Below, piece after piece: positions 2,051-5,819 of a stretch of DNA of 5,819 bases (its first letter is position 1; every line of letters begins with the position of its first letter). The position numbers and the translations under genes are program-made. The notes beneath the pieces were generated by a model, which saw only the letters and a list, made by a program, of their open reading frames with translations, ran no database searches and was not told where the DNA came from. The DNA comes from Promethearchaeota archaeon (lineage in GTDB: Archaea; Asgardarchaeota; Odinarchaeia; Odinarchaeales; JBHLKK01), in the NCBI GenBank assembly GCA_048939465.1, contig JBHLPL010000117.1, positions 1 through 5,819 of the forward strand, written 5' to 3'.

Positions 2051-4348
2051 ATGCCTAAATCAAGAAAGAGTATTTCTGAAGAGGAACAGACCTCCACGAT
2101 TCTCTCTGCAATTTCTAGCTCGCTGCGATCTGAAATCCTCAAACTTCTAAGTCGTGAAACGTCCCTATCGTTCACGGAGATTATGCAGGGTATCGATATT
2201 GATCCTCGTAATGCGGGTAGATTTGGCTATCACCTACGTGAGCTAAAACGGGCAAATCTCATAACGGGCGGACCGGCAACGGGCTATTCTCTGACACCCA
2301 TAGGAGAAAAAGTAGTAGACTTCATATGGACACTTGAAGATATAAGCAGGAAGTATTTGGATGAAATATTCGTCAGAACTTCAAGAATCTCGATGGAGCA
2401 CTTCGATCGAGGCAAAATAACAGAATCATTAGTAAGAGAAGCCAGTGTTCCGAAAACCCTTGCAGAGAAGATAGCGAAGGAAGCAGAAGATAGACTAATG
2501 AAACTGAAAGTACAGTATCTAACTTCTTCCTTGATTCGTGAATTCGTGAATGCTATCCTCCTCGAAAAGGGTTTTGAAGAATACCGTCATGCACTAACCC
2601 GTCTTGGTCTCCCTGTTTATGATATCACTCAGCTTATCAAGAATCCGTCATTTAAAGCAACCGACTCAAGTCCTGAAATTGTGCATAAATTGGCAGGAGA
2701 TGCTGTATTAGAGCAATACCTCTTTATGAAGATACTCCCTAGAAAGGTCGCAGATGCGCATCTTTCTGGAGCTATTCATATACCGCATGCCAGCTACTGG
2801 GTCTTAAAGCCAAACGAAATTTGCCATGACCTGCATACTTTGCTTCAACGAAATTTCTTTTCGGCAAAGCCTCCTAAAACGTTAAGAGATACCCTTGGTC
2901 AGATATCCATGATTATTGGAAATACACGAGCAAACGTTATTAGCGGGCAGGTTTTTGATCATTTTAACGTCTTTTTGGCACCATATGCGAGGGCAAAGGA
3001 CATAAAAGAAACAAAGAAAGCACTGAGAGTCTTCTTTGCTGAACTGAACAATACCTTCTTCAGTCAAGAGAAACGTCCGAACAGCACTATTCTCCTTGAA
3101 TTCACAATCCCCTCTTACCTCAGAGATACTCCGGCAATTGGACCGAACAATAGGATAGTTGGTACATATGGGGAGTATGCTGATGAAGCCAGTTTCATAT
3201 TAAACGCAATACTGGATATTTTGATGAAAGGCGATATGCTGGGGAGACCTTTCTTCAATCCAAACATCGTACTAAGAATAAGACCTGAAACGAGGGAAAC
3301 CTCTTTACAACTTCTACTGAAATCTCATAAGTTGGCCTCGAAATGGGGAACTCCCTACTTCATAAACATGCGTCCAGATTGGCAGACTCTGAATGCTTGT
3401 TACACCGGGAACCTCACACGTTTAGAATCTTCGTGGAAGAGTAATTGGGATCTGGGTGTCAATCGCACTGGAAATCTTGATTGGGTTGCAGTAAATCTCC
3501 CTCAAGTTGCTATTGAATCGAAGGGAGATGAGGAATCGTTGTTCGGTTTACTTGACGAGTATTTGAACATAATTTACGAAACTCTTACAGTAAAGCATAA
3601 AACAATTTATGAAAGGCTTCGAAAAGATCATCTACTTCCGCTACTCATGCATAATATTGATGGTGAACCTTACTACCGTTTAGAAAACGCAACTCATACC
3701 GTCGCTTTCTTGGGGTTAGATGAGGCCGTTAGAAAGTGCACCGGCAGCTCTATACATGAGGGGAGAGATGCTCTAGATTTTGCCAAGACTATACTAAATC
3801 ACCTGGCCGATTTTGCAGAGAACTCCACTAAAATCTCTGGTTTAAGATGGAACACAATGCAGATGCCCGCAAGTTCTGTTGCACATAGACTTGCGAAACT
3901 AGATGCAGAGCATTTCGGATCCGATAATTCAATTGCACAGAATGCTGGAGCCACACCCTTCTACAGCACCAGCAACATACTCGCGTCCGCCTCAGTACCG
4001 TTCGAAAAAAGAGTGGAACTGGAATCACAAATCCATCCTATGTTGCTGGGTGGGCACATGCTTAGCATTCCTTTATCGGATTCTCGTATTACATCAAAAA
4101 GATTGTTGAAAGCTACCGAGAGAATCTGCGATTCCGATGTTGGTTTCTTTGCCTATAGCAGACGTTTGACTTTCTGCAGCAGGTGTTTAAGCACATATCA
4201 GGGCGTCCAGCAGAAGTGCTCCTCTTGTGATCTGTCTGGCACAAATCTGAAAAGTTTTGACCGAGCGATTGGCACCTACGGACAGTTAGATAAACTAGAA
4301 TCCAGCCTGAAACTCGCAATTATTGGTCAGAATAGATATTCTCTCTAA
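2051..4348 (+). CDS. nrdD: Winged-HTH (ArsR-like) + ATP-cone + class III ribonucleotide reductase (NrdD)-like fusion, catalytic motifs degenerate
   Basis: aa ~15-95: wHTH (SSLRSEILKLLS...SFTEIM...GRFGYHLRELKRANLI...YSLTPIG). aa ~105-185: ATP-cone (VRTSRISMEHFDRGKITESL...LIREFVNAILLEKG). The body has NrdD hallmarks SGQVFDHFNVFLAPY, GRPFFNPN, WGTPYFIN, RTGNLDWVAVNLP, LGGH and a C-terminal CSRC-x10-CSSC Zn site. No NrdG activase gene is in the window. Confidence 0.85.
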   Translation: MPKSRKSISEEEQTSTILSAISSSLRSEILKLLSRETSLSFTEIMQGIDIDPRNAGRFGYHLRELKRANLITGGPATGYSLTPIGEKVVDFIWTLEDISRKYLDEIFVRTSRISMEHFDRGKITESLVREASVPKTLAEKIAKEAEDRLMKLKVQYLTSSLIREFVNAILLEKGFEEYRHALTRLGLPVYDITQLIKNPSFKATDSSPEIVHKLAGDAVLEQYLFMKILPRKVADAHLSGAIHIPHASYWVLKPNEICHDLHTLLQRNFFSAKPPKTLRDTLGQISMIIGNTRANVISGQVFDHFNVFLAPYARAKDIKETKKALRVFFAELNNTFFSQEKRPNSTILLEFTIPSYLRDTPAIGPNNRIVGTYGEYADEASFILNAILDILMKGDMLGRPFFNPNIVLRIRPETRETSLQLLLKSHKLASKWGTPYFINMRPDWQTLNACYTGNLTRLESSWKSNWDLGVNRTGNLDWVAVNLPQVAIESKGDEESLFGLLDEYLNIIYETLTVKHKTIYERLRKDHLLPLLMHNIDGEPYYRLENATHTVAFLGLDEAVRKCTGSSIHEGRDALDFAKTILNHLADFAENSTKISGLRWNTMQMPASSVAHRLAKLDAEHFGSDNSIAQNAGATPFYSTSNILASASVPFEKRVELESQIHPMLLGGHMLSIPLSDSRITSKRLLKATERICDSDVGFFAYSRRLTFCSRCLSTYQGVQQKCSSCDLSGTNLKSFDRAIGTYGQLDKLESSLKLAIIGQNRYSL

Positions 4349-4375
4349 AATTAGATGGGTATCTAGTGTGGAAGA

Positions 4376-4417
4376 TGGTAGCGGGGCCGGATTTATCCGG
4401 ACTGAAAAGAGACCGCT
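4376..4417 (-). repeat. Intronless, degenerate minihelix-like copy of the tRNA-iMet ends (AGCGG...CCCCGCTACCA)
   Basis: The - strand reads AGCGG TCTCTTTTCAGT CCGGA TAAA TCCGG CC CCGCT A CCA. The last 11 nt are identical to the spliced tRNA 3' end and the first 5 nt to its 5' end. It starts 1 nt after the tRNA CCA. Confidence 0.5.
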
Positions 4418-4423
4418 ATGGTA

Positions 4424-4456
4424 TTCCCCCGGGATGACGGTGTGTCTTGCTCCCGA
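4424..4456 (-). other. tRNA intron 6, position 71/72 (33 nt, acceptor stem)
   Basis: CCCC-GC|T-CGGGA...TCCCG-GGGG-AA|T: 4-bp central helix, two 3-nt bulges and a 5-bp intron helix. Removal restores U72, A73 and CCA. Confidence 0.8.
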
Positions 4457-4468
4457 GCGGGGGATGGA

Positions 4469-4498
4469 ATTTCATGGGTGCGGGCCTGCCGCCCCGGA
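4469..4498 (-). other. tRNA intron 5, position 59/60 (30 nt, T-loop)
   Basis: GATGG-TTCA-AA|T...TGAA-AT|T-CCATC: the T-stem is the outer helix and TTCA/TGAA the central helix. Removal restores TTCAAAT. Confidence 0.88.
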
Positions 4499-4512
4499 TT
4501 TGAACCATCGAT

Positions 4513-4535
4513 CTCCCGCAACTCCTCGGAGTTGA
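4513..4535 (-). other. tRNA intron 4, position 45/46 (23 nt, variable loop)
   Basis: CCCG-AG|T-CAACTC cgag GAGTTG-CGGG-AG|A: perfect central and intron helices. Removal restores AGATC. Confidence 0.88.
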
Positions 4536-4543
4536 CTCGGGGT

Positions 4544-4559
4544 ATCTCAGAGCCCCTCA
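4544..4559 (-). other. tRNA intron 3, canonical position 37/38 (16 nt)
   Basis: GGGG-CTCA-TA|T-GAG ggg CTC-TGAG-AT|A-CCCC: a strict BHB. Confidence 0.93.
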
Positions 4560-4576
4560 TATGAGCCCCGCGGGAT

Positions 4577-4589
4577 TTCAGGCCACGGT
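4577..4589 (-). other. tRNA intron 2, position 20a/21 (13 nt, D-loop)
   Basis: CAGG-AG|A-CCGTGG-CCTG-AA|A: 4-bp central helix and two purine 3-nt bulges; flanking helices relaxed. Confidence 0.78.
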
Positions 4590-4596
4590 CTCCTGA

Positions 4597-4625
4597 TTCG
4601 GCTCAAACGCCAATATGCGTCTGGC
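4597..4625 (-). other. tRNA intron 1, best-fit position 15/16 (29 nt, D-loop)
   Basis: TG-GGGT-AG|G-C CAGACGC atattg GCGTTTG A-GCCG-AA|T-CA: central helix 3 of 4 paired, 2-bp outer helix, 7-bp intron helix in register. Shifted junctions (16/17, 17/17a) give no central helix. Confidence 0.7.
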
Positions 4626-4717
4626 CTACCCCACCCCGCTTTCCAGTGTTACATATTACATTAATTGAGAGACAGTGTGAGCCTCTAAGGACATTTCCTG
4701 CCCTGAAATTCTTTTGC

Positions 4718-4747
4718 GAATTGGTGAGTGTTACCTCGACTCAATTC
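4718..4747 (-). other. BHB-shaped hairpin upstream of the tRNA (putative 5' leader)
   Basis: The - strand reads GAATT-GAGT-CGA-GGTAAC-ACTC-ACC-AATTC: 5-bp outer helix, 4-bp central helix and two 3-nt bulges in the correct orientation. Confidence 0.35.
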
Positions 4748-4770
4748 AATATGCTTGTCGTGAAAACATG

Positions 4771-4786
4771 TATTTAAATTCCTCGG
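4771..4786 (-). promoter_or_regulatory. Candidate BRE-TATA promoter for the tRNA transcript
   Basis: The - strand reads CCGAGGAA-TTTAAATA, a purine-rich BRE abutting a consensus TATA; predicted start near 4748. TTTAAA is palindromic, so + strand use for dys cannot be excluded. Confidence 0.5.
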
Positions 4787-4938
4787 AATTCATCTCCACT
4801 CTTTCGGGTGGGGTTTTCCTGGGAGAAGAAAATAAAAGTACCCACTGCTAGATTTCAGTTCATATTCGTGCTTGGATCACTCATTTAAAAGAAAGCTCCA
4901 AGTATTCATTACGAGATTCAAAGCGGTTATCTGAGGTG

Positions 4939-5819
4939 ATGGGATTGAGCAAGCACAGTGATAGGTTTGTTAAGAATATGGAACTTAACCCTGAAATCAC
5001 GGTTGATGAATTAATAGGCGAATTTAGAAAATCGGGAGCATTTGGTGCAGGTAGATTGGGTCTTGCTGCGGAGATACTAGGAAGGATGTTTCGCAAAGAG
5101 AGATTGCTGAAGTTTCTAGGATTGGCGGGTGCGCTGGTTCCAGCCGGCATTCGAAGAATCGTTTCCCGTCTTATTTACGATGGCCTGATTGATGTTTTAG
5201 TGACCACCGGTGCAAATATAACACACGATTTAGTTGAAGCTTTTGGAGAAAGACATGAGAAAGCATACATACAGAAAAATGATTCACAACTCAGAAAGCT
5301 GGGAATTAACCGGATATTTGATATCTATATTAGAGATAGTGCTTTCGAAGCTCTTGAAGATAATATTCAGGCTATTTTAAGCAATATAAGTGAGGAAAAA
5401 CGCATAGACGGACTTGCTGTTTATGAACTAATATGGGAAATTGGGAGGAGGATTAAAGACCGACACTCAATAGTTAGAAGTGCCTTCAAAAAGAAGATTC
5501 CGATATTCTGTCCAGCTGTTACCGATTCTATCTTAGGTCTTCAACTATGGTTATTCAGGCAAAGAGAAAAACTAAACATCGATGTCATAAAGGATTTGCA
5601 GAAAATAATTGACATAGCTTACGAGTCAGAAGAGGCGGGAGTTATAATTTTGGGCGGTGGAGTTCCAAAAAACCATATTCTCCAAACCATGTTAATAACG
5701 GGAAAAGGATTTGACTATGCTATACAAATAACAACTGATAGACCAGAGTCTGGGGGTCTAAGTGGTGCCTCACTTCAAGAAGCCCAATCCTGGGGAAAGA
5801 TTAAATCGGATGCCCTGTG
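4939..5819 (+). CDS. dys: Deoxyhypusine synthase (3'-truncated by window edge)
   Basis: Frame +1 is open to the window end, so it is absent from the ORF track: ...GAFGAGRL...FLGLAGALVPAGIR...LVTTGANITHDLVEAFG...GINRIFDI...IPIFCPAVTDSILG...LGGGVPKNHILQ...DYAIQITTDRPESGGLSGASLQEAQSWGKI. The catalytic Lys of SWGK is at 5797-5799. The start may be TTG 4945, since the SD GAGGTG at 4933-4938 abuts ATG 4939. Confidence 0.95.
   Translation, partial: MGLSKHSDRFVKNMELNPEITVDELIGEFRKSGAFGAGRLGLAAEILGRMFRKERLLKFLGLAGALVPAGIRRIVSRLIYDGLIDVLVTTGANITHDLVEAFGERHEKAYIQKNDSQLRKLGINRIFDIYIRDSAFEALEDNIQAILSNISEEKRIDGLAVYELIWEIGRRIKDRHSIVRSAFKKKIPIFCPAVTDSILGLQLWLFRQREKLNIDVIKDLQKIIDIAYESEEAGVIILGGGVPKNHILQTMLITGKGFDYAIQITTDRPESGGLSGASLQEAQSWGKIKSDAL

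Follow-up and report, generated by a model that had tools for sequence, protein, structure and literature searches.

Can an initiator tRNA be put together from seven exons, the last of them only five nucleotides long? The question is raised by a locus in a 5,819-nt contig (JBHLPL010000117.1 of assembly GCA_048939465.1; the whole contig is called the window below, and positions without further label refer to it). The locus is very probably the functional, and apparently the sole, initiator tRNA-Met gene of an uncultivated sediment Asgard archaeon, with a product spliced from seven exons. A preliminary description of the window had proposed the same interrupted gene, with Thermoproteales as its point of comparison. 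The host is not a Thermoproteales-like crenarchaeon but an Asgard archaeon of the Odinarchaeum order, from a sister family of Odinarchaeum, and appears to inhabit mangrove or other sediment.

Organization of the gene

The gene lies on the minus strand between positions 4640 and 4419 of the window, and pre-tRNA position i corresponds to window position 4641-i. In the minus-strand reading it starts with the acceptor strand AGCGGGG and ends with UACCA. Seven exons of 15, 7, 17, 8, 14, 12 and 5 nt give a spliced product of 78 nt, and the six introns (29, 13, 16, 23, 30 and 33 nt) account for 144 of the 222 nucleotides. The introns occupy precursor positions 16-44, 52-64, 82-97, 106-128, 143-172 and 185-217. 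On re-derivation, the coordinates, intron lengths and exon sizes given in the preliminary description were all exact. Its placement of two introns in the D loop and one each in the anticodon loop, variable loop, T loop and acceptor stem was likewise recovered, at sites 15/16, 20a/21, 37/38, 45/46, 59/60 and 71/72 in standard tRNA numbering. The features of the locus are as follows.

4641-4669, minus strand: putative upstream promoter region, predicted from the sequence; A/T-rich TATA-like stretch about 20-30 nt before A1
4626-4640, minus strand: exon 1, 15 nt; acceptor 5' strand, U8, G9, D-stem 5' strand, A14 and G15; equivalent to positions 1-15 of compact Asgard initiator tRNA-Met genes
4597-4625, minus strand: intron 1, 29 nt; D loop, site 15/16; population variants present
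4590-4596, minus strand: exon 2, 7 nt, UCAGGAG; D-loop bases 16-20a including G18 and G19
4577-4589, minus strand: intron 2, 13 nt; site 20a/21
4560-4576, minus strand: exon 3, 17 nt; A21, D-stem 3' strand, G26, anticodon-stem 5' strand and loop to A37 (anticodon CAU)
4544-4559, minus strand: intron 3, 16 nt; canonical position 37/38
4536-4543, minus strand: exon 4, 8 nt; A38, anticodon-stem 3' strand, positions 44 and 45
4513-4535, minus strand: intron 4, 23 nt; variable loop, site 45/46
4499-4512, minus strand: exon 5, 14 nt; positions 46-48, T-stem 5' strand and T loop to A59
4469-4498, minus strand: intron 5, 30 nt; T loop, site 59/60
4457-4468, minus strand: exon 6, 12 nt; U60, T-stem 3' strand and acceptor 3' strand 66-71
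4424-4456, minus strand: intron 6, 33 nt; acceptor stem, site 71/72
4419-4423, minus strand: exon 7, 5 nt, UACCA; U72, discriminator A73 and the encoded CCA
4376-4418, minus strand: conserved 3' tail, 43 nt, directly after exon 7

The spliced product

The joined 78-mer was identified by ARAGORN as a tRNA-Met(CAT) with a cloverleaf fold. The unspliced window gave no tRNA with ARAGORN and no match to any Rfam family even at E values up to 1. Moreover, a genome-wide search with the tRNA model listed 24 genes, and the contig of the interrupted gene was not among them. The spliced product has U8, A14, G18G19, A21 and G26, and its T loop reads UUCAAAU. It also has all of the initiator hallmarks, namely the CAU anticodon, the A1:U72 pair, three consecutive G:C pairs (29-31:39-41) closing the CUCAUAA anticodon loop, and discriminator A73 followed by the encoded CCA. 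These hallmarks are common to the compact Asgard initiator genes.

When 121 genomes of the phylum were searched by pattern, 21 initiator genes with an uninterrupted anticodon arm were obtained, two of which (L130 and L133, from another Asgard family) are free of interruptions altogether. Without its CCA, the spliced product is identical to these two compact genes at 73 of 75 positions, the difference being a single compensatory T-stem pair. The compact genes, not the spliced product itself, score 62.5 bits on the Rfam tRNA model RF00005, for which the cut-off is 29. The earlier claim that excision leaves an intact initiator tRNA is thus upheld by the ARAGORN call and by the near identity to these high-scoring genes. 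By its predicted fold and its hallmarks, the spliced product is an initiator tRNA.

Conservation in related genomes

Seven multi-intron genes were compared, those of the present genome (G000), a second genome of the same genus (G002), four genomes of the sister genus Odinarchaeum (L027-L030) and a metagenome contig (L145). All seven exons are identical in all seven genomes or contigs, which represent three lineages. The introns are 45-100% identical across the compared sequences and 45-65% identical between genera, except for the short intron 2 (79%).

In G002 the whole locus is 88% identical and all six introns are present. The gene of the four Odinarchaeum genomes is orthologous, with the same sites for introns 1, 2, 3, 4 and 6, the same tail design and the same neighbouring deoxyhypusine synthase gene. 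It differs in that GAUGGUUCAAAUCCAUC is unbroken, so that the T-loop intron 5 is precisely absent; relative to Odinarchaeum, the lineage studied here has an extra 30-nt intron at 59/60. Contig L145 (Ga0164318_10187909, approximately 1170-1440) has introns 1, 2, 3, 5 and 6 and the tail, and the variable-loop intron is precisely absent, ACCCCGAG being followed directly by AUCGAUGG. Its intron at 59/60 is a different, 27-nt sequence. None of the neighbouring genes on L145 was homologous, and its affinity to Odinarchaeum is based solely on the similarity of introns and tail. A further sequence, L146 (JABAOC010016790.1), has three introns, at 20a/21, 37/38 and in the variable loop, and has neither the acceptor-stem intron nor the tail. 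Possibly the ancestor of the Odinarchaeum order already had six introns in this gene, and two precise losses have occurred since.

Single introns were also observed at varied sites (variable loop, T loop and D loop) in initiator genes of other Asgard families (L129, L131, L132 and L135-L139), indicating that the initiator gene has been interrupted repeatedly in this phylum.

Geometry of the splice sites

Archaeal tRNA introns were evaluated as bulge-helix-bulge (BHB) motifs, in which the RNA is cut after the second base of each of two 3-nt bulges flanking a 4-bp central helix. The canonical intron 3 served as the template: its central helix pairs a set of four exon bases with a set of four intron bases, which end two bases before the 5' cut and the 3' cut, respectively, and all junctions were scored in this way. 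Five of the six junctions have a complete central helix (4/4 bp). One motif is strict and five are relaxed.

The strict motif is that of intron 3, a full hBHBh' with an outer helix of 5 bp (the anticodon stem), a CUCA:UGAG central helix and an inner helix of 3 bp. Intron 4 (HBh') has a CCCG:CGGG central helix and a 6-bp inner helix, and intron 6 (HBh') has a CCCC:GGGG central helix and a 5-bp inner helix; neither has an outer helix. The outer helix of intron 5 (hBH) is the 5-bp T stem, and its central helix is UUCA:UGAA. Intron 2 has a complete CAGG:CCUG central helix, which becomes CAGG:CUUG with a G-U pair in Odinarchaeum, and flanking helices of just 0-2 bp. The relaxed motif of intron 1 has 3/4 central pairs in this genome owing to a G10.G42 mismatch, with a 7-bp inner hairpin following after one mismatch. 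The central helix of intron 1 is complete in G002 and in three of the four Odinarchaeum genomes, and the inner hairpin (precursor positions 18-24:31-37) is maintained by different sequences in each lineage. The preliminary description had assigned this geometry to every junction; it holds for five, with complete helices and the expected bulges, and is a slight overstatement for intron 1.

The helices are also preserved by compensating changes. The inner helix of intron 6, CGGGA/UCCCG here, is CAGAAU.../...AUUCUG in Odinarchaeum, where it reaches 9-10 bp, and the hairpin of intron 5 shows an A:U to G:C change between G002 and G000. When random cut pairs of similar length were drawn from the same locus, a complete central helix was found in 2%, and 0.5% had in addition a flanking helix of 2 bp or more. 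Five complete helices among six junctions far exceed this expectation, and the compact genes define the junctions independently, by homology; a chance origin is therefore excluded.

Introns 2, 4, 5 and 6 can slide by 1-2 bases in this genome with the product unchanged. The positions of these junctions were chosen by BHB geometry and by the unambiguous 71/72 junction in Odinarchaeum, which reads CCCCGC before and ACAG after the 5' cut and GA(A/U) before and UACCA after the 3' cut. C46 and A47 belong to the BHB motifs of both intron 1 and intron 2, and the 3' strand of the anticodon stem to those of both intron 3 and intron 4. Since motifs that share bases cannot coexist, the introns must be removed stepwise.

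The 3' end and the conserved tail

Exon 7 is followed directly by the conserved tail, which is composed of a spacer containing GUCUCUU (4407-4413), a hairpin (4387-4400) and the sequence CCCCGCUACCA (4376-4386). The last element is a copy of the tRNA acceptor 3' strand plus ACCA and reads CCCCGCU(A/G)CCA across the lineages. The hairpin has 5 bp and a loop of 4-5 nt (4 nt here), with two double, pair-preserving changes between lineages. The spacer motif, which reads GUCUCCU in the other lineages, can pair with AGGAGAC, where exon 2 meets intron 2; in this genome the complementarity extends over 10 bp. The tail was found in all seven genes that have the intron at 71/72 and is absent from the 22 Asgard initiator genes without it (L146 and 21 others). 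The seven tail-bearing genes probably form one clade and would then represent one co-occurrence rather than seven.

The possibility was considered that the 3' end of the tRNA is made differently, segment 6 being no ordinary intron and the acceptor 3' strand or CCA being supplied by the downstream copy through a larger excision or alternative processing. The copy is conserved like an exon, and in five of the seven genes its use would leave the mature sequence unchanged; a 5-nt terminal exon is also mechanistically awkward. However, no BHB motif was found that connects the copy with an exon end, at 71/72 or elsewhere, and the hairpin before the copy, with its loop of 4-5 nt, is no substitute for the T arm. 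In two Odinarchaeum genomes the copy reads GCCA and would place G73 where A73 is conserved. Furthermore, intron 6 has its own HBh' motif with the compensatory inner-helix changes, and UACCA follows directly after its 3' bulge in 7/7 sequences. This route to the 3' end is very unlikely.

The tail was proposed to act in cis as a helper that enables splicing of the acceptor-stem intron; such a built-in splicing chaperone would be of a new kind for an archaeal tRNA. By pairing with the free 5' strand of the acceptor stem and with the region of exon 2, the tail would allow the true 3' strand to form the CCCC:GGGG helix of the intron 6 motif, and it might tether the 5-nt terminal exon until it is joined by the RtcB ligase. 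If true, the proposal would explain the survival of an intron three bases from the end of the acceptor stem.

The consensus fold of the seven precursors does pair the 5' acceptor strand with the copy in the tail; the overall structure is not clean. When the last splicing intermediate was folded, the probability of the intron 6 central helix was near 0 without the tail and 0.12-0.60 with it. However, shuffled tails did about as well, with 6 to 80 of 100 shuffles reaching the observed helix probability, and the folding thus gives no support for a specific function of the tail. The helper role is regarded as doubtful.

The nearest analogy to the tail is found in the split tRNA genes of Nanoarchaeum equitans, where extra complementary sequence outside the mature tRNA holds the pieces so that the BHB motif forms and the pieces are joined. 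In that organism the pieces are separate transcripts joined in trans, whereas here there would be one transcript.

A seventh BHB motif that would release the tail after the CCA was not found in any of the seven sequences. A search for other genes with a doubled acceptor 3' strand returned 45 matches genome-wide, none of them tRNA-like except the initiator gene. A mobile element flanked by a duplicated tRNA 3' end, as at att sites, was also considered and rejected: the two copies are separated by only some 70 nt, made up of intron 6, UACCA, the spacer and the hairpin, with no open reading frame, and the two-copy arrangement is kept across two families, which was counted against an integrated element. 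Another possible origin of the tail is an ancient duplication, the scar of which has been kept for a different reason.

Two introns in the D loop

A second way of reading the precursor has fewer or differently placed introns, with the D-loop region removed as one unit of 44-49 nt and exon 2 absent from the mature tRNA. No other BHB motifs of the gene are as weak as those of introns 1 and 2, and a scan for BHB motifs revealed alternatives, with cut pairs at (18,64) or (19,63), whose outer helices of 6-7 bp span both D-loop introns. The resulting product, however, would have no G18 G19 and a D loop of about 6 nt. The D loop of the compact L130 and L133 genes reads UAG-UCAGGAG-AUCCC, which fixes the junctions of exon 2 on both sides. 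Because the compact homologues hold exactly UCAGGAG at this place, exon 2 is taken as part of the mature tRNA and the D loop as having two introns, not one. In addition, the neighbouring intron bases differ among the seven genes, but exon 2 does not vary. Removal as a single unit is very unlikely on this evidence.

Population variants and integrity of the assembly

Contigs from four public metagenome runs, belonging to four studies, were aligned to window positions 4300-4760. A 5.5-kb mangrove contig was identical throughout; it may be the source of the window itself and does not count as independent support. Contigs X7, X15 and X17 differ from the window at 18 to 28 positions and cover the gene with no insertion, deletion or joint, which shows that the architecture is not an assembly artefact. 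Among the metagenome contigs covering the gene, no intron-less allele was seen.

All 27 of the variants listed within the gene (4419-4640) fall in introns, for which the probability under an even spread is about 8e-6; the variant table contains just the best-supported differences, and both figures are to be read with this in mind. In the diverged strains the similarity stops at 4372 and 4669, so that the conserved unit comprises everything between the presumed promoter and the tail, both included.

DNA nearly identical to positions 4000-5000 was observed in mangrove and other sediment metagenomes of several studies. A relative of the hot-spring Odinarchaeum thus appears to live in sediments.

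Search for a second initiator gene

The assembly comprises 1.96 Mb in 152 contigs and is 91% complete. In a short-word BLAST of the spliced tRNA against this genome, clusters of exon matches occurred at the interrupted locus only, and a scan of the same 91%-complete assembly for initiator-type anticodon arms, with a canonical intron allowed, also returned that locus only. The closed 1.4-Mb genome of a relative (G003) has five GGGCUCAUA sites, one of which is in a tRNA context and belongs to the interrupted gene. The preliminary description had left room for another initiator gene; none was detectable in this assembly or in the closed relative, and the interrupted locus is apparently the only one.

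The remaining concern is that the locus is a decaying pseudogene or relic and that a functional initiator gene lies in the 9% of the genome missing from the assembly. The fragmented state of the assembly would allow this, and the failure of standard tRNA finders to call the locus would be in line with it. Against it, all 78 exon bases are identical across two families and a metagenome lineage in which the introns have diverged to about 50% identity, the population variants avoid the exons, the BHB helices covary, and the closed relative has no alternative initiator anticodon arm. Decay of the gene is very unlikely. A split or permuted tRNA gene is ruled out, the seven exons being collinear on one strand within 222 nt.

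Rfam or ARAGORN finds only 24-26 tRNA genes in this genome. Most of these have lengths of 90-147 nt, suggesting that there are many other multi-intron tRNA genes that escape detection. Since standard tRNA finders miss the initiator gene entirely, genomes of this group will seem to lack an initiator tRNA.

Splicing enzymes and the proposed pathway

Two paralogues of the splicing endonuclease EndA (PF01974), of 204 and 191 residues, are encoded in the genome. The 204-residue protein has the Tyr/His/Lys triad, and its nearest match is the catalytic alpha subunit of Aeropyrum pernix (3p1z_B; E 1.5e-44). In the 191-residue protein, Val replaces the catalytic His in an alignment to the Methanocaldococcus jannaschii enzyme. 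The (alpha-beta)2 type of endonuclease is known to cut non-canonical introns (PMC5829648, PMC4090602); the epsilon2 type is likewise able to do so. The pattern of two paralogues fits the (alpha-beta)2 type, and the two proteins probably assemble as a heterotetramer. A survey of the EndA subunits, proposed with the original prediction of non-canonical introns, thus recovered the two-paralogue set expected for them.

Two matches to the RtcB ligase were obtained (E 1.8e-152 and 1.3e-97). One of them (contig C31 of G000, 2961-5708; loci L142 and L144) lies within an open frame of 973 residues in which the profile match is split into profile positions 1-57 and 45-426. The two matching stretches are about 460 codons apart, and the interruption looks like an intein.

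The following pathway, including transcription, each cleavage and ligation, their order and the part played by the tail, is inferred. The precursor transcript would be about 265 nt long, starting near A1 and extending to the second CCA. A splicing endonuclease, probably the (alpha-beta)2 enzyme formed by the two EndA paralogues, would cut at twelve sites, two for each BHB motif. RtcB would then join the seven exons, and trimming of the 43-nt tail would expose the encoded CCA.

Several observations weigh against this pathway and against the assignment of the gene as a whole. The central helix of intron 1 contains a G.G mismatch in this genome, and introns 2, 4 and 6, having no outer helix, are relaxed motifs that need an enzyme of broad specificity. 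Thermodynamic folding of the whole precursor gives a low probability for most of the BHB motifs; the pair probabilities are mostly near zero and are inconsistent between species, and no order of splicing can be derived from them. The 91% completeness leaves room for a second initiator gene in this genome. Splicing at all six junctions is deduced from comparative sequence; neither the gene alone nor a 1-kb stretch was matched by any RNA run listed. The holding of a 5-nt terminal exon for ligation and the removal of the tail are further difficulties for the pathway.

Other features of the window

A dispersed repeat of about 160 bp (4680-4843) is located between the promoter of the initiator gene and the deoxyhypusine synthase gene. 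The genome has at least 15 more copies, with 75-84% identity, and the metagenome contig depth is about ten-fold higher over 4713-4747, within the repeat. No terminal inverted repeats and no Rfam match were found for 4680-4843. The repeat could be an element resembling a miniature inverted-repeat transposable element or a family of small RNAs. A link between the repeat and the tRNA, suggested by a 12-nt identity to bases 5-16 of the spliced tRNA, was dropped, the match (E about 6) being at chance level.

The anaerobic ribonucleotide reductase NrdD is encoded on the plus strand at 2051-4348 (765 residues), with an N-terminal winged-helix/ArsR-like domain (DUF7347, HTH_20) before the ATP cone.

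Comparison with known multi-intron tRNA genes

An essential 78-nt RNA made from seven pieces by twelve cuts and six ligations would mark how far protein-based tRNA splicing may go, and the smallest exons, of 7, 8 and, at the 3' terminus, 5 nt, bear on its practical limit. The precursor offers a compact test substrate for the order of splicing, for the substrate range of Asgard EndA and for the way in which micro-exons are held for RtcB. Furthermore, the related genes with five introns, in which either the T-loop or the variable-loop intron is missing, form a natural series for the study of intron gain and loss in the archaeal group closest to eukaryotes.

Reviews describe two or three introns per tRNA gene in Crenarchaeota, mainly in Thermoproteales (PMC4090602). 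Multi-intron tRNA genes of Pyrobaculum, Thermofilum and Caldivirga were reported by Sugahara et al. in 2007 and 2008, as summarized in PMC4090602. The gene described here shares with those of Thermoproteales the short BHB introns at non-canonical sites, the relaxed HBh' and hBH motifs and, probably, the (alpha-beta)2-type endonuclease. It differs in that it belongs to another phylum and has a higher count of introns, and a tail copying the 3' end is not described for Thermoproteales.

In the nucleus of Cyanidioschyzon merolae, tRNA genes have up to three ectopic introns, the stepwise removal of which was demonstrated by reverse transcription PCR (PMC3728597). There too, several BHB-type introns interrupt the D, anticodon and T regions. 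That organism, however, is a eukaryote with at most three introns per gene and with splicing shown experimentally.

The closest parallel is found in other Asgard archaea. In Atabeyarchaeia and Freyarchaeia, 92-95% of the tRNA genes have introns and more than half have several (Valentin-Alvarado et al. 2024, PMC11291895). A preprint of October 2026 reports 2.2 intervening sequences per gene, with a maximum of five, in Freyrarchaeaceae, Jordiarchaeaceae and Atabeyarchaeaceae (Goswami et al., bioRxiv 10.64898/2026.10.13.758758); Odinarchaeia are not named in its main text. The benchmark of up to three introns used in the preliminary description is therefore outdated, and the present gene goes one beyond the record and does not double it. 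The published Asgard tRNA genes belong to the same phylum, are mostly interrupted, and have introns at non-canonical sites in the D and T arms that are bounded by BHB junctions, missed by annotators and repeatedly gained. In contrast to these genes, with at most five introns, the gene described here has six, comes from a different class, and has a putative intron at 71/72 with a 5-nt terminal exon and a conserved tail, a combination for which no published description was found. Six introns is one above the highest reported count found, and the gene is an extension of a documented phenomenon and not a new principle.

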